Sequence record: MK327934.1
DNA from: Escherichia phage vB_EcoM_G2469
Length of the DNA: 64,000 bases
Reading direction: 5' to 3' (one strand)
The first letter of the stretch is position 1; the number at the start of each line of letters is the position of its first letter. Of the stretch, positions 2,172 to 9,704 are shown piece after piece. A model generated the notes under the pieces. It searched no databases. It was not told where the DNA came from and was given only the letters and a program-made list of their open reading frames with translations. The position numbers were made by a program, and so were the translations under genes.

Positions 2172-3134
2172 TTATTTCCAAGTCAGTTCGCAGGTCAGTT
2201 GAAGAAGCATATACATAACATGTAATTCAATATTACTTGCTAATCCATGAAACTTATTGTTTTCGCCTGCAATTTCATAAAGCGAAATAATACTTTTACC
2301 AGGTGCAACTTGGTCATAACATTCTGAAACTAATTTATCGATGAACCATGAATAATCTGCGGCATATTTTGGAGCTAATGCACGAAGTTGTTTGATATCT
2401 TTATTTTTCATTGCTTCTATGACATCATCTACCGTGCCACGATCATTGGTTACAATCGACAAAATACCTGCATCAAGAACACCTTTAGACGAGTACTGGT
2501 CTAATTGACCAATTGTACGTCGAAAGTCCGGGAAGTTCTTTTTAACCAGAGCTGCAACAACTTTCATATCAGCGATTTCGATATTTTCGTTCTTACAGAT
2601 TTCAACCATGCGATGAATCATTTTCTTCATCATTGAGATTTTATCTTCTTCGGTTGGACGTCCGAATTCGATAACTCGACAACGACTACGTAACGGTTCG
2701 ATAATTCCATCGATGTTGTTGGCAGTAATAATAATAGAACAGTTACTAGAGAATTCTTCCATGAATGTACGAAGGTGACGTTGTGATTCAGCGAGGCCAC
2801 TACGGTCAAATTCATCAATAACAATAACTTTAGGCTTGCCTTCCATTGAGACTGAACGAGCGAATGCAGTTAATGGACCACGCACAAAATCAATCTTACA
2901 ATCAGAACCGTTGACGAACATCATTTCGGCATTGATATCATTACATAATGCTTTTGCTACGGTTGTTTTACCGGTACCAGGAGATGGAGAGTGTAAAATA
3001 ATATGAGGAAGTTTTCCTTTAGATACTAAAGACTTGAATGTTTCATGGTCATACGCAGGCAGAATACATTCGTCAATGGAAGAAGGACGATATTTCTGTT
3101 CTAGAATGTGTTCTTTGGAATTGATAGTAATCAT
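2172..3134 (-). CDS. 44: clamp loader ATPase subunit gp44 (AAA+)
   Basis: 320-aa ORF with Walker [11 protein letters not shown] and Walker B VIVIDEFD; T4 gp44-like. Confidence 0.9.
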
Positions 3135-3209
3135 GTAATTTTCCTCATTATCATTAAACTGGAGGATTTCTCCTCCATAATCGTATCACAATAAACGTAA
3201 AGCTTTGAC

Positions 3210-3966
3210 TTAGAAGTCGTGAGTAGAATCGGCTTCCATCGCAATAACATAACTTACTTGAGAGCTTTCAAACTTGGCTGCAACTTTATCACCAGCTCCC
3301 CACAACATTACTTTATAGTTACCTGGCTGGATTTTCATATTAGCCATATTGATTACGAAGTTAAAGTTGTTAGAACCATCATAATCGGTAAGAGTCAAAG
3401 AATACTTAGGACGAGTTAGTCCAGAATCTTCAACTTTATTATAGCCATTGATAACAATTTTACCATCTTTATTTGTAATAGCAATTGTATCAATCTGAAG
3501 ACCACGTGAAACTCGAAGTAATTGTTGAAGGTCTTCGGCTTTAATTTCAGTAATCACAGAAGCCACCGGGAATTGAATTGGCTTATTAGGAAAAACAATG
3601 GTGCTCTTGTCAGCGGCAGGCCAATAAACTGTGGAACGTGTATCTGCAATTTTAATATTGCCATCAGTGTGCATTGAAATTTCAGCATCATCAGACACTA
3701 GACTCAAAATGCTTAAGAAGCTATTCAAATCATAAAGTGCTATCATCAGACACTAGACTCAAAATGCTTAAGAAGCTATTCAAATCATAAAGTGCTACGT
3801 CAAAATCAATTTCATCAGAGATATTTGCTTCCGCATAAGTGGTGCCATTAACTGCACGAGTCATAATAAATTTACCTTGACTCAGCAGAATGCCGGAGTT
3901 AATAGAGGCGAAGTTTTTCAGAATAGCGATAGTATCTTTAGACAGTTTCATTTTATTTCCTTTCAA
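3210..3966 (-). CDS. 45: sliding clamp gp45, reading frame interrupted by a 55-bp tandem duplication; read as two ORFs 3730..3966 and 3210..3746
   Basis: N-fragment MKLSKDTIAILKNFASINSGILL...LSLVSDDSTL* and C-fragment MIALYDLNSFLSILSLVSDDAEISMHTDGNIKIAD...; removing one repeat copy restores a continuous 233-codon gp45. Confidence 0.85.
3688..3797. repeat. perfect direct tandem duplication, 2 x 55 bp
   Basis: 3688-3742 and 3743-3797 are identical (tcatcagacactagactcaaaatgcttaagaagctattcaaatcataaagtgcta); boundary ambiguous by 1 bp. Confidence 0.9.
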
Positions 3967-4422: not shown

Positions 4423-4614
4423 TTATTCGTAGAAGTCGGTAACTGTCCATGCGGAATTGCGATTAGACATTATTTTATTATACTCATCTTTAAAAGCAGA
4501 TTTGAGCATTTGTTCAGTAACAATATGTTCTTCACCTGAAAACGTATTGGTCAAAACATATTTTTTAATTTCAGGGACAACGAGAAGATGTTGTCCGGTT
4601 GAATACTCCGCCAT
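4423..4614 (-). CDS. hypothetical protein (position of T4 45.2)
   Basis: 63-aa ORF between rpbA and gene 46 region. Confidence 0.5.
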   Translation of the reverse strand: MAEYSTGQHLLVVPEIKKYVLTNTFSGEEHIVTEQMLKSAFKDEYNKIMSNRNSAWTVTDFYE

Positions 4615-4638
4615 TATAAATCTCCGAGATTAAAGCAA

Positions 4639-4646
4639 TATAAATA
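4639..4646 (+). promoter_or_regulatory. T4-type late promoter TATAAATA for the plus-strand HNH gene
   Basis: Exact TATAAATA on the plus strand about 45 nt upstream of ATG 4692. Confidence 0.55.
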
Positions 4647-4691: not shown

Positions 4692-5408
4692 ATGAATTAT
4701 AACTCAATATACGAAAAGCTTATCACCAATGCTAAATCAAGAAGTTTAGATGGTTATACAGAACGTCATCACATTATACCACAATGTTTAGGTGGAAGTG
4801 ATGATGCTTTAAACTTAGTAGACTTAACACCGGAAGAACATTATTTGGCACATCAACTGTTGGTAAAAATCCATCCAGATAATGCCTCTTTAATATATGC
4901 CGCTCGTATGATGACCATATCATCTCCTAAAGCAGATAGAAGCAAAAACAAATTATTTGGATGGCTTCGACGTAAGAATCAAGAAGTTCAAAAGAACAAA
5001 GAATTCACTGCTGAAACCCGTAAGAAAATGTCTGAGTCTGCAAAAAATAAACCAAAGATTACATGTCCACACTGCGGTTTAACCGGCACTGAAGGAAACA
5101 TGAGACGTTGGCATTTTGATAACTGTAAACAAGGCCCTACGCCTAAAATAGTAAAACTTGATCAAGAAACAAAAGATAAAATAATTAAAACCATGGCCAC
5201 GAAAATTTGGAAAGAAGATTCTTGCCCGTTTTGTGGCTTAACTACTAAGTTATCGGCGTTAAAGCCACATATAAAATTCTGTAAATCAAATCCTAACAGA
5301 AAGAAAAAAGAGGACAAGAAAATTAAATGTCCTCATTGCGATAAAATAGGGATCCCTGCTAATATGCATCGTTGGCATTTTGATAACTGTAAACATAAGC
5401 CTCATTAA
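4692..5408 (+). CDS. HNH endonuclease with three C-terminal zinc-finger-like repeats (putative free-standing homing endonuclease)
   Basis: HNH core ERHHIIPQCLGGSDDALNLVDLTPEEHYLAHQLL; three repeats of CPHCG...NMRRWHFDNC; only substantial plus-strand gene in the early block; AAGGA RBS upstream. Confidence 0.8.
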   Translation: MNYNSIYEKLITNAKSRSLDGYTERHHIIPQCLGGSDDALNLVDLTPEEHYLAHQLLVKIHPDNASLIYAARMMTISSPKADRSKNKLFGWLRRKNQEVQKNKEFTAETRKKMSESAKNKPKITCPHCGLTGTEGNMRRWHFDNCKQGPTPKIVKLDQETKDKIIKTMATKIWKEDSCPFCGLTTKLSALKPHIKFCKSNPNRKKKEDKKIKCPHCDKIGIPANMHRWHFDNCKHKPH

Positions 5409-7093
5409 GAGGCTTTCATTACAGTAAATCGTCCAACTTTGCTCATTTGCAAATGTTGTCCATAAGCTTGTGGGTCATGGTCTCTGTGACTAATTATAAA
5501 CACGTTTGCATCGGTTAGAGAGTTAAGAATTGTTGAAATAGCTTTAATACCTTCAGAATCAGTCGCGGAATCCATGACTTCGTCCATAATTAATGTATTG
5601 ATTCTAACACCAGAGACCTTTTCAGCGATATCTCGCCATGTAAACAACAATGCGATATCGATACGTGCCTTTTCACCTTGACTAAATGAAGCATAACTGA
5701 ATTCTTCACGTCCACGTGATTTTATAGATTCATTGAATTCTTCGTCAATAGAAAACACGTAATCAGCTTCCATGATTTTAAGATAATGGTTAATCTGCTT
5801 GTTGAACAGAGGCACATATTTTTTAATGATAGCACCTTTAATACCAGAATCTTTTAACATATCTGTGATAATACCACGATGGTATTTTTCAAGAACGATA
5901 TCCGATTTTGTTTTAATGATTTTATCAAGTTCTTTTTGAAGCAAAGCTATCTCATCGGCATGGTCGATAAATTCCGCCGAGGCTTGTTCTATTGCAGCTT
6001 TAACTTTCTTAGCTTTATCAATAGTGGCAATCATTGCTTGTTTCTTGGTACGAATATCAGATGCAATGTCCTGTTTAGTCTTAACATTAGCTCTATATTC
6101 GTCCACTAGGACACTCAGATTATCTCTGTGACAGGTAAGTTGCTCGAATGAGTGATTACATTCATGAAGCTTATCGGTAATCTTAGAGACAATAGGATCA
6201 CCCTGGTGCAACTGTGATGCACAAGTAGGACATGTGCCGCCATCATGATACATCTTAATAACTTTGTTATATGAGTCAATTTTAGATTTAATCAAGAATG
6301 CTTCTTGTCCTATCTTGTTGAATGCCTCAGTAGGGTCTTCATCAAGAACGATATTAAGTAGTCGCTCATTAGCTTCTTCTATTTCTGCTTTTAATGAACG
6401 AGCTTCTTTGGCTAGGTCGTCATACATATTCTGTAGACGCGCTACATTATCACCAGATAATTTCTTTTGACGTTCGATATTCTCGTTATAAATCTTAATT
6501 TGTTGGATAACACCATCTTTCTTGGCATCGAGAACTTGTCCCTGGGAATTAAGTTCTCGAACTTGAGACTTATTGATTTTATCCATTTCAGCGAGTGTGC
6601 CGACTTCTAAAAGGTCTTCGACAAGTTTTCTACGAGCAGGGGTGCTAAGAGCCATGAAAGGGGTATACCCTGCCGTCCCAAGCACAACTATTTGTTTAAA
6701 AGACGCGTATGACATTCCGATGCTACGTTCAAATTCTTCTTGGAAGTCACGACTGCTGGCAGATTCATCGAGACGAACACCATCAACGGAGATTTCGAAA
6801 ATATTGGGCTTTTGGCCACGTCTAATGAAGTATTTTTTATCATCGAATTCCATCCAAAGCTCAACTAAGAGCTCTTTCTTGTTCGTGCTATTAATGATTT
6901 GTCCTTTCTTAACATCACGAAATGGTTTACCGAAAAGTCCGAAAGTAATGGCTTCTAACATCGTAGATTTACCACCGCCGTTTTTACCTGTGATTAAGGT
7001 CTTTTGGACTTTATCTAATTGGATATCGATAAAATTTTGCCCAACAGACATTATATTTTTATAACGAACACGATTTAATTTAAATGTTTTCAC
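5405..7093 (-). CDS. 46: recombination endonuclease subunit gp46 (SbcC/Rad50-like ATPase)
   Basis: 562-aa ORF, Walker A GKNGGGKST, long coiled-coil, C-terminal signature; apparent GTG start at 7091-7093 directly after an in-frame stop. Confidence 0.9.
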   Translation of the reverse strand: MKTFKLNRVRYKNIMSVGQNFIDIQLDKVQKTLITGKNGGGKSTMLEAITFGLFGKPFRDVKKGQIINSTNKKELLVELWMEFDDKKYFIRRGQKPNIFEISVDGVRLDESASSRDFQEEFERSIGMSYASFKQIVVLGTAGYTPFMALSTPARRKLVEDLLEVGTLAEMDKINKSQVRELNSQGQVLDAKKDGVIQQIKIYNENIERQKKLSGDNVARLQNMYDDLAKEARSLKAEIEEANERLLNIVLDEDPTEAFNKIGQEAFLIKSKIDSYNKVIKMYHDGGTCPTCASQLHQGDPIVSKITDKLHECNHSFEQLTCHRDNLSVLVDEYRANVKTKQDIASDIRTKKQAMIATIDKAKKVKAAIEQASAEFIDHADEIALLQKELDKIIKTKSDIVLEKYHRGIITDMLKDSGIKGAIIKKYVPLFNKQINHYLKIMEADYVFSIDEEFNESIKSRGREEFSYASFSQGEKARIDIALLFTWRDIAEKVSGVRINTLIMDEVMDSATDSEGIKAISTILNSLTDANVFIISHRDHDPQAYGQHLQMSKVGRFTVMKAS

Positions 7094-7950
7094 TTAAATT
7101 TTTCCTCATGAATTCAGAAACTAAAGCCTGTAAAGAACTTTGTATAGGATATCCTAAATTGACTAAATTTTTAGAAAAAGTCACATATTTAGGTTTGTTC
7201 ATTTTAACCCATTCAACGTAAAGCATATCAAAATTTTCCCAATGATATCCTTTTCTTCTAGATTTCAAATGAGTGTCTCTAACTTTAGGATTTTTCCAAC
7301 TGCGTGAAACTCCAGCCGATAATGATTCTCTATATTCGGCTGTTTTAGATATTTTACGACAAGCATCCAAATGTTTTTGTTTATTAATAGGGTCACTAAA
7401 CCACTTTTGGGTCATAATAGAGACGGTTTCTTTAAATTCCTTTGAACTTGTCATAATTCTGTGTTTCTTTAAATTTTCCGGATTTTTAAACCATGCTTTT
7501 AAAGCTTGACTAATCTTAATTCTATTATCCTGATTGGAATAGTATAATGTCATTTTTATAGAATTAACTTTACAAACATTTTCGAATTCTAAAGAATACG
7601 CCTCGGCTATATTATTTAGTTCATGCGTTGTACAATTTAAATTAAATCGCCCGGTATACATTCTTTGAAGCGCGTTAATCATCTTATGGTTGCCAGTTTT
7701 TGCCAAAATGCTATGTGCAATAAAATGGTTATAATGACTTAAATGACACAAGTTCCATTTACATGTTTTAAAATCTGGAAAAATAGATTTTGGTAGTATA
7801 TGGTGAACCTGAGTCAGTCCTTTTACTTTATTAGTGGAATTAGTTTTTATAAAGTTTAAATACTCATCAAGTCCTTCCCACGAAGGGAAGGAGGTTTTAA
7901 GAATTTTATAAATTTGAGTTTCATAATCAGTCTTCGTCATTATACGCATC
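7080..7950 (-). CDS. HNH-like endonuclease with C-terminal NUMOD-like repeats (putative homing endonuclease)
   Basis: Motif VHHILPKS...WNLCHLSHYNHFIAH; repeats WFKNPENLKKH / WFSDPINKQKH / WKNPKVRDTHLK; overlaps gene 46 start and the upstream ORF. Confidence 0.6.
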
Positions 7951-8184
7951 CTCAATACACGCTTCAGCCATTTTAAGAATAGAGCCGGGAGTATCGTTGT
8001 CCATTATATTAAAGCTAAATTCAATAGCCCAGTCGGTGCAGACATGAACTGCTTTAACTTCATTGCCTTCAACGCGTAATGGCTCAATCCAATACTTGAT
8101 AGTGTTCTCGAATCCATCATCATCTTTAACGTCCATTTCAACTTCAAGCCCAAGCCCAGCATTGTTAAATTCATCTAAAGTCAT
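7927..8184 (-). CDS. hypothetical acidic protein (position of T4 46.1)
   Basis: 85-aa ORF between gene 47 and the HNH-like gene. Confidence 0.5.
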   Translation of the reverse strand: MTLDEFNNAGLGLEVEMDVKDDDGFENTIKYWIEPLRVEGNEVKAVHVCTDWAIEFSFNIMDNDTPGSILKMAEACIEDAYNDED

Positions 8185-9200
8185 TGTGTTGCCTCAATAT
8201 AAAGTTCGTTGGAATATTTGACCAGCGCTTCTCTGTCTTCGTCTGAGATATCTGGAATCGCGTCAATATATTCTTTAATGATATCTTGAAGTGATTTAAT
8301 CTCGATTTCCTGGTCGTCATCAAATTCAACACTATTATCAACTTTAGAAACCATACGAAGAGAGTGAACTACTTTTTCAAGTTCAGATTCAAACTTAGTC
8401 AACTCTGAATCAATTTCTGATACTATAACACGTACGGCTAGATTAGTATAATCAGAATAATTGATTTTGCCTTTAAACGGATAAGTGATTCGTCGATGCC
8501 ATGTTGTTTCATTAGGAATAAATTCCATACGTTCAACATCAGTGTCAAATACCCAGAATCCGCGCGGGTCGTTCTCATCACCTGCAGTAAGGGTCCATGG
8601 TGTCCCAATATATTTGACGTTAGCAGCTTCAGAGATTGTGTGGAAGTGGCCGGACCAGACTTGTTTATAGGTCTTTAAGAAATCAGGTTCAAGCCCATGA
8701 GACTTCATCCCTTTATAGAAATAAAAGCCATTCAGTTCCCAGTGACCAACACAATACGCTGCAGAAGAAGTCTTGATGTGCTCTAAGATTTCACCTGTAT
8801 TTTCTTCACACATCCATGGAACGATATCAATCAGACATCCGTCAAAATCTACAGTAGTCGGATGCTCATAAATAGTAAAGTTTTCAAATTGAGTTAACAA
8901 TTCAGAAACAGTGTTAGGTGTTATTGTATTCTTAAACGCCATGTCATGGTTTCCTATCGTGACATGAACGTGAATGCCTGCTTTAGAAATCATATCAACG
9001 ATTTCACGATTGAATTCCATTGTACGATGTGTTATTGCTTTACGGACGTCAAACCAATCACCGTACTGAATCCAAGTTTTAATCCCGTGTTTCTTAGAGT
9101 ATTCAATTGCTTGTCGAATACCATCACGTTGAATATCTTGAACCCATGGGTCGTCTTGTTTGACTCCGATATGGAAGTCGCCTAAGTGCAAAATTTTCAT
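8181..9200 (-). CDS. 47: recombination endonuclease subunit gp47 (Mre11/SbcD-like phosphoesterase)
   Basis: 339-aa ORF, MKILHLGDFHIG...GDWFD...GNHD calcineurin-like motifs. Confidence 0.9.
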   Translation of the reverse strand: MKILHLGDFHIGVKQDDPWVQDIQRDGIRQAIEYSKKHGIKTWIQYGDWFDVRKAITHRTMEFNREIVDMISKAGIHVHVTIGNHDMAFKNTITPNTVSELLTQFENFTIYEHPTTVDFDGCLIDIVPWMCEENTGEILEHIKTSSAAYCVGHWELNGFYFYKGMKSHGLEPDFLKTYKQVWSGHFHTISEAANVKYIGTPWTLTAGDENDPRGFWVFDTDVERMEFIPNETTWHRRITYPFKGKINYSDYTNLAVRVIVSEIDSELTKFESELEKVVHSLRMVSKVDNSVEFDDDQEIEIKSLQDIIKEYIDAIPDISDEDREALVKYSNELYIEATQ

Positions 9201-9245
9201 ATTATTTCCTCATTAGTTAATTCATTCTATCATCCGTTTATAAAG

Positions 9246-9270
9246 CAAAAAAGGAACTCCGAAGAGTTCC
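9246..9270 (-). terminator. intrinsic terminator (minus strand)
   Basis: Plus aaaaaaggaactccgaagagttcc: stem GGAACUC/GAGUUCC with UUCG loop followed by a U-run on the minus strand. Confidence 0.6.
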
Positions 9271-9273
9271 TAT

Positions 9274-9447
9274 CCACATAGTACACCGTACAGAGGCTCA
9301 TTTGAACTTTTAAATCGAATGGGCTTGTACGTAATAGTTCCTTCGGCTTTAGCTTTATCATAAGACTCTTTAAAACGTCTCATTCTTTCTGCTTTGCCTT
9401 TACGGATTTTATCGAAATTTTCAGAAGTCGGGATGTTCGTCATGCAT
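9274..9447 (-). CDS. hypothetical small protein (57 aa)
   Basis: Hand translation MTNIPTSENFDKIRKGKAERMRRFKESYDKAKAEG...; ends just before the terminator; below the ORF-track cutoff. Confidence 0.35.
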
Positions 9448-9482
9448 AATCATCTCTCAGAAAATACCTAAACCGATTTCTC

Positions 9483-9704
9483 TCATCGTTTCCACCATTT
9501 CTTAACTTGAAATGAATCGACCCACACGAGTTGTTTTGGGTCTGCCTTTACAATAGGCGGACAAATTTCTGTAATAGAACCGTCGTGATATTCCTTTTCA
9601 GAAATTTTAACACAAAGAGGACCTCCCAATTTAAGGGTGAACCCTGCGTTCAGCCTCAGACGTTTAAACTTTGTTTGAACTAGCGCCATTAATGATGTCC
9701 TCAA
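9483..9704 (-). CDS. hypothetical protein
   Basis: 73-aa ORF. Confidence 0.4.
   Translation of the reverse strand: MRTSLMALVQTKFKRLRLNAGFTLKLGGPLCVKISEKEYHDGSITEICPPIVKADPKQLVWVDSFQVKKWWKR

Follow-up and report, generated by a model that had tools for sequence, protein, structure and literature searches.

A probable MobD-like homing endonuclease gene takes the place of gene 46.1 beside recombination gene 46 in Escherichia phage vB_EcoM_G2469

We analyzed 64,000 nucleotides of Escherichia phage vB_EcoM_G2469 (MK327934.1), referred to here as the window, at the locus between genes 47 and 46. A minus-strand open reading frame (ORF) lies there, co-oriented with genes 47, 46.2 and 46, and at its longest spans 7080–7955 and 291 codons with a TTG start (ORF list), in agreement with the 291-aa protein of the preliminary description. 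The locus comprises:

7927–8184, minus strand: gene 46.2 homolog, the upstream neighbor (Pfam T4_Y03C, E = 2.5e-44; T4 gp46.2, 55.6% identity, E = 1.8e-33)
7949–7953, minus strand: GAGGA Shine-Dalgarno sequence; the identical sequence precedes 46.1 in JK45, RB69 and ST0
7919–7940, minus strand: gene 46.1 remnant, which is the upstream insert junction (ATG, codons 2–7 (MTKTDYE) and one further base)
7080–7940, minus strand: free-standing MobD-like HNH homing endonuclease gene (probable), 286 aa from ATG 7940 (ORF list, PHROG 655, BLASTP against T4 MobD, F2 and pEK20 annotation)
7094–7918, minus strand: insert-specific DNA, missing in insert-free Mosigvirus genomes (GC 30.1% versus 37.3% for the window)
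5405–7093, minus strand: gene 46, Rad50/SbcC-like recombination nuclease subunit, the downstream neighbor (Pfam AAA_23, SMC_N and Rad50 zinc hook; annotation of relatives)
4692–5408, plus strand: second HNH homing endonuclease gene, converging on the gene 46 3' end (PHROG 655, E = 6.9e-67)

The preliminary description had placed the end of the gene at 7950, which is off the codon boundary; the longest ORF begins at TTG 7955. This TTG overlaps the Shine-Dalgarno sequence at 7949–7953, which is located 8 nt upstream of ATG 7940, and the latter codon is both the annotated endonuclease start in phages F2 and pEK20 and the gene 46.1 start in phages without the insert. Judging from this context, ATG 7940 is the likely start of a 286-aa protein, and the GAGGA reads as the resident 46.1 translation-initiation region, now serving the endonuclease gene. 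The overlaps described earlier at both ends are borne out, amounting to 14 nt with gene 46 (7080–7093) and, given the ATG 7940 start, 14 nt with the upstream ORF (7927–7940). The frame is not a chance ORF, because it has relatives at 42–56% identity and because codon changes among four near-identical gene copies are 7 synonymous versus 2 non-synonymous.

The local gene map had to be amended on two points. The upstream ORF, previously taken as 46.1-like, is a 46.2 homolog according to its Pfam T4_Y03C and T4 gp46.2 matches, and the endonuclease gene is not wedged between gene 46 and a 46.1-like ORF but replaces 46.1. Gene 46.1 (DUF5487) is missing from the window apart from its first seven codons, which now open the endonuclease ORF; a tblastn search of the window with JK45 gp46.1 matched residues 1–7 only, at 7940–7920. 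Alignments of insert-bearing with insert-free phages are identical up to the end of the 46.1 remnant and unrelated beyond it, and in RB69, JK45 and ST0 the endonuclease gene's place is occupied by 46.1. The insert ranks among the 0.2% of 825-nt windows with the lowest GC content. From its sequence context, the endonuclease gene appears as a cassette in the 47–46.2–(46.1)–46 transcription unit.

Two HNH genes flank gene 46 (5405–7093), as had been proposed, the other one being on the plus strand at 4692–5408 and encoding a protein with 43.5% identity to T4 MobB across its N-terminal 130 aa. Six phages (SQ17, phiEC1, PNJ-9, pEK20, AV112 and AV113) carry the minus-strand endonuclease gene without the plus-strand HNH gene, and three (G2285, FL31 and a20) the reverse. 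Because many phages have one alone, each of these two genes is an element in its own right.

The minus-strand protein has a three-part architecture:

7701–7814, minus strand: HNH (beta-beta-alpha-metal) core, residues 43–80 (TQVHHILPKS...WNLCHLSHYNHFIAH; H46, H47, N63, H72 and H76)
7269–7535, minus strand: three tandem repeats of ~30–35 aa each, residues 136–160, 166–190 and 200–224, predicted helical hairpins
7101–7256, minus strand: C-terminal domain common to T4 MobD (RRKGYHW..D.LY..W.K.N.PK..F......LGYP), with the BLASTP alignment extending to residue 277

Family assignment came from profile and pairwise searches. The endonuclease matched PHROG 655 ‘homing endonuclease’ (E = 2.7e-31, residues 6–282) and phrog_12434 ‘HNH endonuclease’ (E = 2.8e-12), and T4 MobD aligned at 29% identity over 241 aa (BLASTP, residues 43–277, E = 4e-20), with alignments of T4 MobB and MobC confined to the HNH core (about 40–53 residues). 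We recovered 1340 relatives at E ≤ 1e-5, with NUMOD3 in most and Pfam HNH in some. The endonuclease itself had no Pfam HNH or NUMOD match, Pfam and NCBIfam scans returned only sub-threshold irrelevant matches (for example, GerD and DUF1543) and defence-system models (PADLOC) gave 0 matches. Proteins 100% and 99% identical in phages F2 and pEK20 are already named ‘MobD-like homing endonuclease’ or ‘HNH endonuclease’, and literature searches (46/47-locus homing endonuclease, ‘MobD-like’, Mosigvirus homing endonucleases) retrieved no work on it.

The HNH-like motif noted earlier (VHHILPKS...WNLCHLSHYNHFIAH) is present, and profile matches and invariant residues agree with it. Across a 121-sequence family alignment, H46, H47, P50, H72 and H76 never vary, N63 is kept in at least 90% of sequences, and all of these residues are present in the window protein. 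Searched against the PDB, the family profile matched the HNH motifs of McrA (6ghc, E = 5e-4) and a group II intron maturase (6me0, E = 2e-3) as well as Cas8f-HNH fusions (E = 0.012–0.015), with all of these matches aligning along the HH...N...H segment, and the relatives P0020 and P0021 pass the Pfam HNH and HNH_4 cut-offs. No solved relative emerged from a profile restricted to the close subfamily, and fold searches with the endonuclease retrieved no nuclease, I-HmuI included. The AlphaFold model has strands at 43–47 and 64–68 followed by a helix at 69–82, with pLDDT above 95. Position 44, two residues ahead of HH, is Q in the endonuclease and in its Melville and P0003 relatives and E in at least 90% of relatives.

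Downstream of the core, W-[FK]-x-[ND]-P-x(3-4)-[KT]-H motifs occur at residues 150, 180 and 215 (286-aa form), in a region modeled by AlphaFold as helices across 137–231. The three 25-aa units gave a sum-of-pairs BLOSUM62 score of 93, which was reached by 0 of 300 shuffles (20.6 ± 8.5, maximum 45); of the three NUMOD-like repeats claimed earlier, the repeats are therefore real, whereas their affinity to NUMOD3 is weak. We considered filing them as NUMOD3 and set this aside because of the weak unit HMM and hhalign results: a NUMOD3 unit HMM (179 relatives' units) scored the endonuclease at 4.0 bits, with 9 of 500 shuffles doing equally well, and hhalign aligned one unit (SKEFKETVSIMTQ; P = 6e-4, probability 29%). 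At E ≤ 1, Pfam NUMOD3 (PF07460), whose units follow h-S-x-E-T-K-x-K-I-S-x-x-x-x-G, had no match in the endonuclease or in T4 MobD; one relative (P0013) has W-x-N-x-E type units and canonical NUMOD3 together. Nor did the endonuclease match Pfam PF22083 or PF07453 (NUMOD4/I-HmuI_NUMOD-like and NUMOD1), modules that occur in one distant relative (P0016). The C-terminal domain has nine invariant columns in the subfamily (W234, D238, L240, Y241, W244, P250, F255, G263 and P265) and is modeled as three helices at lower confidence (pLDDT about 60–65). The repeat region is presumably an extended DNA-binding region, and the C-terminal domain is probably a DNA-binding module.

Signals for expression and a distinctive stretch of gene 46 lie at and beyond the 3' end of the endonuclease gene:

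7201–7225, minus strand: T4 middle-promoter-like site (MotA box TGCTTTA followed by TAAAAT), within the endonuclease gene and 108 nt 5' of the gene 46 start
7091–7107, minus strand: GAGGA (7103–7107), inside the endonuclease 3' end, then the gene 46 GTG start (7091–7093); insert-free phages use ATG
6989–7093, minus strand: first 105 nt of gene 46, with 16 substitutions versus the common insert-free allele, accompanying the endonuclease gene
7028–7060, minus strand: recoded 33-nt patch, gene 46 nt 34–66, with 63.6% identity to the JK45 allele versus 94–99% on either side

The middle-promoter pattern gave 14 matches in the window versus 3.3 expected. The site at 7201–7225 is present in all four insert-bearing phages, with none between 47 and 46 in insert-free phages, and from its sequence it is possibly a promoter; a similar site lies upstream of gene 47 (9224–9247). 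No late-promoter TATAAATA was found within or near the endonuclease gene, and sigma-70-type promoters and terminators were not enriched in 6800–9400. By these searches, the endonuclease gene itself reads as a promoter-less cassette. Some phage endonuclease genes are known to have an RNA hairpin that masks the ribosome-binding site; here, the region 7900–8000 folds no better than shuffles (z +1.1).

Copies at >95% identity were found in 9 phage records out of about 130 Mosigvirus-type records, and the full-length ORF is kept at 99% in these nine phages. Most Mosigvirus records, including RB69, JK45 and ST0, have 46.1 rather than the endonuclease gene. Across the four insert-bearing phages, the endonuclease gene is 99.4–99.8% identical and gene 46 nt 1–114 are 99–100% identical, on backgrounds where gene 47 is 86% identical. 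Between the window and PNJ-9, for example, identity is 99.76% in the endonuclease gene and 99.1% in gene 46 nt 1–114, versus 86.3% in gene 47 and 93.9% in the remainder of gene 46. Conversely, PNJ-9 (with the gene) and ST0 (without it) are 99.8% identical over the upstream 1260 nt but 85.1% in gene 46 nt 1–114. These comparisons establish that the endonuclease gene and the gene 46 tract have spread horizontally together.

Substitutions in the tract fall at gene 46 nt 1, 7, 34–66, 96 and 105, and the tract is present in 15 of 130 records. The tract is not confined to phages with the endonuclease gene, since a wider search revealed five insert-free carriers; it may therefore be a pre-existing allele and not a conversion tract. 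These five phages also have the patch, with differing upstream end points. As the place where the enzyme recognizes or cleaves DNA, the patch at 7028–7060 is the strongest candidate, here presumably in resistant form. That it is the cleavage site of this MobD-clade enzyme, with the five insert-free carriers as natural resistance alleles, is a tentative proposal to which we give somewhat less than an even chance. If true, resistance alleles would arise from repair that converts the cut site without copying the gene, the MobD branch would gain its first target assignment, and the Mosigvirus population would display the sensitive, invaded and resistant stages of a gene-drive cycle at one locus. 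The cassette may also be hard to lose, because signals for essential gene 46 (ribosome-binding site, start codon and perhaps a middle promoter) now lie on it.

Several known systems resemble the endonuclease. T4 MobD likewise has an N-terminal HNH core, central short repeats and the C-terminal GxHW..D.LY..W.K.N.PK..F......LGYP domain, and it is also free-standing, co-oriented with its neighbors and overlapping its upstream gene. The two differ in site (nrdC.11/mobD.1 for MobD, 46.1/46 for the endonuclease), in an extra N-terminal segment of ~25 aa in the endonuclease, in its IFPDFKTCKW, which replaces the GG.DD loop of the HNH motif, and in the residue before HH, where MobD keeps E but the endonuclease has Q. 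MobD gives no mechanistic template, because a review gives no determined activity and no known target for it (PMC2988022). T4 Mob proteins consist of an HNH domain and a distinct C-terminal region, and ORF overlaps and dependence on upstream promoters are typical of their genes (PMC2988022). MobE and MobA are inserted between genes, target a conserved neighbor and are inherited with flanking markers (PMC2988022). Like the endonuclease, they combine an HNH domain with a distinct C-terminal DNA-binding region and overlap the upstream gene, but their likeness is confined to the HNH core (assessed here against MobB, MobC and MobD), their targets are nrdB and gene 39 rather than the presumed target gene 46, and their nicking has been demonstrated, whereas the endonuclease is known here from sequence. 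I-HmuI-type HNH nickases also join an HNH nuclease to an extended, mostly helical DNA-binding region, but they are intron-encoded, while the endonuclease is free-standing and has no NUMOD1, NUMOD3, NUMOD4 or I-HmuI_NUMOD-like Pfam match.

Together, we consider it highly probable that this ORF is a free-standing gene for an HNH homing endonuclease in the T4 Mob family and that MobD is the nearest T4 paralog; as such, the gene is nothing out of the ordinary among selfish mobile nuclease genes of the T4 ‘Mob’ type, a class already known. The core of the earlier reading, an HNH homing endonuclease in a layout reflecting homing around gene 46, is upheld by the PHROG match, the conserved residues, the patchy presence, the near-identical cassette on diverged backgrounds and the linked gene 46 tract, and sequence comparison establishes the family membership, the intactness of the catalytic residues and the patchy distribution. 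In relatives, gp46/47 is annotated as the nuclease for recombination in T4-type phages, and the endonuclease gene is in the same operon. T-even phages recombine at high frequency, and gp46/47 processes breaks in homing. We infer the enzymatic activity, the form of cleavage (nick or double-strand break) and the exact target by analogy. For its translation, the endonuclease would use the ribosome-binding site and start codon of 46.1, and the 3' end of its gene would supply the GAGGA and GTG start for essential gene 46. During mixed infection with a related phage lacking the gene, the enzyme would bind via its helical-repeat and C-terminal regions, as MobA, MobE and I-HmuI suggest, and would nick or cut the insert-free allele near the 46.1/46 junction, most probably at gene 46 nt 34–66. 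Recombination-dependent repair would then use the donor genome as template and copy the endonuclease gene together with the ~105 nt of gene 46 next to it; the donor's own allele would escape cutting because the site is recoded.

Other explanations deserve weighing. The gene could be a decayed or domesticated relic that no longer cuts, persisting because essential gene 46 now has its ribosome-binding site, its start codon and perhaps a middle promoter on this DNA. The position of the gene 46 GAGGA and GTG start inside or at the end of the ORF, the MotA-box-like site at 7201–7225, the replacement of E44 by Q and the lack of a direct Pfam HNH match are all consistent with this, and embedded promoters are reported to favor retention of such genes (PMC2988022). 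All five metal-binding and catalytic residues are intact, however, the ORF is 99% conserved in nine phages with mostly synonymous codon changes, and the cassette recently crossed between backgrounds differing by 14% in gene 47, so we regard a relic as unlikely.

Slightly less probable than a relic is a passenger that spreads by ordinary homologous recombination, a frequent process in T-even phages, or that is mobilized in trans by another nuclease, such as the product of the plus-strand HNH gene 1.7 kb away. Trans homing is documented in T4, where MobE mobilizes the defunct I-TevIII (PMC2988022). Against a passenger, the two HNH genes occur separately (six phages with the minus-strand gene alone, three with the plus-strand gene alone), and the common tract is short, adjoins the minus-strand gene and stops short of running through gene 46. 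We find it very improbable that the protein is instead a sequence-specific DNA-binding regulator or exclusion factor on an HNH-like scaffold: although two thirds of the protein consist of the helical-repeat and C-terminal regions and fold searches retrieved no nuclease, the family shows no variation in the catalytic H-H...N...H-x3-H residues, its profile finds active HNH domains, defence-system models found nothing and the gene is distributed as a mobile element is.

The RB69 type strain was reported to be without homing endonuclease genes (PMC2993671), but such genes do occur in RB69-like phages. Natural alleles of three kinds, sensitive, invaded and patch-only, offer a concrete candidate target for the Mob clade to which T4 MobD belongs. 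In line with site specificity, related genes at 42–56% identity lie directly 5' of gene 46 in Tequatrovirus PP01, Gelderlandvirus Melville and a metagenomic T4-like contig; an IMG/VR scan, which is not informative on close relatives, had 0 of 80 distant relatives adjoining gp46 or gp47. The PP01-type (42–45% identity) and Melville (55–56%) genes align over almost the full length, share the three-part architecture and are placed and oriented alike, their 3' ends reaching or overlapping the start of gene 46. They differ upstream: the PP01 type lies between a retained 46.1 and gene 46, and its opening six codons are those of T4-type gene 46; the Melville type lies between 47 and 46, without 46.1 or 46.2; and the window type takes the place of 46.1, whose first seven codons form its beginning. 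In Mosigvirus NRG-P0074, a PP01-type gene is flanked by Tequatrovirus sequence inside a Mosigvirus genome and came with gene 46 nt 1–114 that are nearly those of PP01 (1 mismatch).

The window represents a T-even-type phage genome nearest to the RB69-like (Mosigvirus) coliphages, with positions 5000-9500 matching Escherichia phage F2 over their full length at 98.4% identity. The ORF and its HNH-like motif were both found at 7080-7955, within the following gene order:

8181-9200, minus strand: gene 47, first in transcription order
7927-8184, minus strand: homologue of gene 46.2 (Pfam T4_Y03C, E 2.5e-44; 55.6% identity to T4 gp46.2)
7080-7955, minus strand: the ORF in question, between the 46.2 homologue and gene 46
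5405-7093, minus strand: gene 46, downstream of the ORF
after gene 46, minus strand: 45.2, rpbA, 45 and 44

The order in T4 is 47, 46.2, 46.1, 46, with no additional gene, and the upstream neighbor, taken in the preliminary description for a 46.1-like gene, is by its identity to T4 gp46.2 the 46.2 gene instead. The start of the ORF also needs correction: TTG 7955 overlaps the GAGGA at 7949-7953, and we favored ATG 7940, which lies 8 nt 3' of the GAGGA and at which the annotations of F2 and pEK20 begin the gene, so that the protein is most likely 286 aa long. With this start, the proposed overlaps at both ends hold (14 nt with 46.2 and 14 nt with gene 46).

In RB69, JK45 and ST0, exactly this position is occupied by gene 46.1 (DUF5487, 240 nt). 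Insert-bearing phages, which carry the endonuclease gene, and insert-free phages, which carry 46.1, are identical through ATGACGAAGACTGATTATGAAA, comprising the 46.1 start and six further codons, and are then unrelated as far as the gene 46 start; tblastn of gp46.1 against the whole window recovered residues 1-7 only. The endonuclease gene has thus replaced the body of 46.1, whose ribosome-binding site and start codon it uses. Gene 46 begins with ATG in insert-free phages but with GTG in the window, where a GAGGA within the final codons of the ORF precedes it by 9 nt.

The window protein matched the PHROGs families phrog_655 ('homing endonuclease', E 2.7e-31, residues 6-282) and phrog_12434 ('HNH endonuclease'), and aligned with T4 MobD at 29% identity over 241 residues, C-terminal region included (BLASTP, E 4e-20); MobB, MobC and the plus-strand HNH protein of the window were alignable over the HNH core only. 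A profile search returned 1,340 relatives at E ≤ 1e-5, most with Pfam NUMOD3 and a few with Pfam HNH. Among 121 aligned relatives, H46, H47, P50, H72 and H76 were invariant and N63 nearly so, while two residues before HH the window protein has glutamine, as opposed to glutamate in at least 90% of relatives. The profile of these 121 relatives matched the HH...N...H segments of McrA (6ghc, E 5e-4), a group II intron maturase (6me0, E 2e-3) and Cas8f-HNH fusions. Like the glutamine before HH, two search results are weak points: Pfam and NCBIfam scans of the window protein itself gave no direct match, and fold searches gave no significant match. AlphaFold (pLDDT 86 overall and 92.5 over residues 1-104) predicted two N-terminal helices, a beta-beta-alpha unit at 43-82, helical hairpins from there through residue 231 and a final three-helix region of lower confidence. 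Overall, phrog_655, the full-length MobD similarity and the conserved HH...N...H residues sustain the HNH homing endonuclease reading, and by sequence the protein belongs to the MobD-like clade of the T4 Mob family, a label already in public records.

The three repeats that had been described are present and exceed chance: the top-scoring set of three 25-aa units (136-160, 166-190 and 200-224) scored 93, compared with 20.6 ± 8.5 for shuffles, none of which (0/300) reached that score. Every repeat is a helix pair, and together they occupy the last three hairpins (137-231) of the model. Direct tests of their proposed NUMOD affinity gave weak results: Pfam NUMOD3 matched neither the window protein nor MobD, a NUMOD3-unit HMM scored 4.0 bits on the window protein (equalled by 9 of 500 shuffles) and hhalign aligned one unit (P 6e-4). 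Because one relative (P0013) combines W-x-N-x-E units, as in the window protein, with canonical NUMOD3 units in a single array, common descent is suggested; 'NUMOD3-like' is at most a plausible description.

At the population level, the gene behaves like a homing endonuclease gene, and several comparisons point to its mobility. Copies above 95% identity occurred in nine phage records only. Between the window and PNJ-9, identity was 99.76% for the endonuclease gene and 99.1% for gene 46 nt 1-114, versus 86.3% for gene 47 and 93.9% for the remainder of gene 46, and PNJ-9 shared 99.8% identity with insert-free ST0 over the upstream 1,260 nt but just 85.1% over gene 46 nt 1-114. The GC content of the insert (30.1%) falls within the bottom 0.2% for windows of that size, and four compared copies differed by 7 synonymous and 2 non-synonymous codon changes.

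Relative to the common insert-free allele, gene 46 of the window carries 16 substitutions in nt 1-105, 12 of them within nt 34-66 (63.6% identity to JK45, 82% to T4), and diverges by ~1.8% beyond. A search with nt 1-114 returned 130 records, 115 with JK45-type and 15 with window-type sequence. The endonuclease gene is present in 10 of the latter, one of them a RefSeq duplicate, and absent from the other five (G2285, WFL6982, WFK, ESCO47 and PTE-Eco05). In the three of these five examined (G2285, WFL6982 and ESCO47), 46.1 is intact and gene 46 starts with ATG, and the upstream end of the tract varies (at nt 7, G2285 has A and the other two have T). This pattern fits cleavage within nt 34-66 followed by repair that would sometimes convert the site without reaching the gene, for which an account of SegG, with its distant cleavage site, offers precedent (cited in PMC2988022); it also fits a tract representing an older allele in which the endonuclease gene first landed. 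Under both readings, the JK45/RB69 form of nt 34-66 is the best candidate target.

As to the site specificity of the clade, other T4-like lineages carry relatives with 42-56% identity immediately upstream of gene 46: between 46.1 and 46 in Tequatrovirus PP01-type phages, and between 47 and 46 in Salmonella phage Melville and a metagenomic T4-like contig. Unlike this clade, MobD lies elsewhere in T4, and 0 of 80 distant relatives from IMG/VR were near gp46 or gp47. The PP01-type ORF (2932-3820 of the PP01 sequence, L005) opens with GTGAAGAATTTTAAACTT, identical to the start plus six codons of gene 46 in T4 (5968-5985 of the T4 sequence, L004), and a recoded second copy, ATGAAATCATTTAAACTT, gives gene 46 a new start after the insert; both the window-type and PP01-type lineages thus borrow resident start regions. 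Mosigvirus NRG-P0074 carries, within Mosigvirus sequence, a ~1.4 kb Tequatrovirus-type patch (L002, 2450-3990) holding the 3' half of 46.2, 46.1, the PP01-type gene and gene 46 nt 1-114 (1 mismatch to PP01). This is a transfer between genera and looks like a homing event. Separately, a more distant relative with 39% identity in the N-terminal half (P0004) adjoins a DNA polymerase B gene with an intein-splicing domain on Logan contig SRR20950736_282 (L094), so that selfish elements of two kinds are neighbors there.

We found no late-promoter TATAAATA in or near the ORF, and the MotA-dependent middle-promoter pattern TGCTTNA-N(11-13)-TANNNT occurred 14 times in the whole window (3.3 expected; no shuffle reached 14), for example:

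9224-9247, minus strand: middle-promoter-like site just upstream of gene 47
7201-7225, minus strand: second middle-promoter-like site, within the ORF, 108 nt before gene 46
4613-4637, minus strand: MotA-type site
5919-5943, minus strand: MotA-type site

Most of the 14, including that upstream of gene 47, are probably real middle promoters. Given the site upstream of gene 47, the simplest view is that the endonuclease gene is expressed within the 47-46 transcript; a comparable arrangement is described for several mob and seg genes of T4 (PMC2988022). The site at 7201-7225 occurs in insert-bearing phages only and, with a chance expectation of ~0.02 in an equal-sized stretch, is suggestive at most. 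A terminator-like hairpin (AGGAACTCTTCGGAGTTCCT, then a T run; 9252-9271, minus strand) lies between an a-gt.2-like ORF and gene 47, and a terminator is annotated at the equivalent site of NRG-P0074.

The overall interpretation in the preliminary description was essentially right and the finding is real; the gene is an ordinary, already annotated element. A review lists MobD with activity 'not determined' and target 'unknown' (PMC2988022), and the literature library that we searched returned no paper on an endonuclease gene residing at the gene 46 locus. RB69 was predicted in a 2010 review to be without homing endonuclease genes (PMC2993671), whereas the RB69-like window phage carries at least two.

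The plus-strand HNH gene (4692-5408) is on the strand opposite to all its neighbors, with a perfect T4 late-promoter TATAAATA at 4639-4646 (plus strand), 46 nt ahead of its ATG. Among its T4 paralogues it is closest to MobB, with 43.5% identity across the N-terminal 130 residues, and its C-terminal half contains three CxxC...(W)H/K..C zinc-ribbon-like modules. The minus-strand sliding-clamp gene 45 contains a perfect 55-nt tandem duplication (3687-3741 = 3742-3796) that causes a frameshift and divides the gene between two ORFs, 3730-3966 and 3210-3746, each encoding ALYDLNSFLSILSLVSDD. All 153 matching phage records (153/153) have a single copy of the unit, and the duplication could reflect an assembly artefact, a defective variant or an edit; a genuine duplication would mean that an essential gene is broken.
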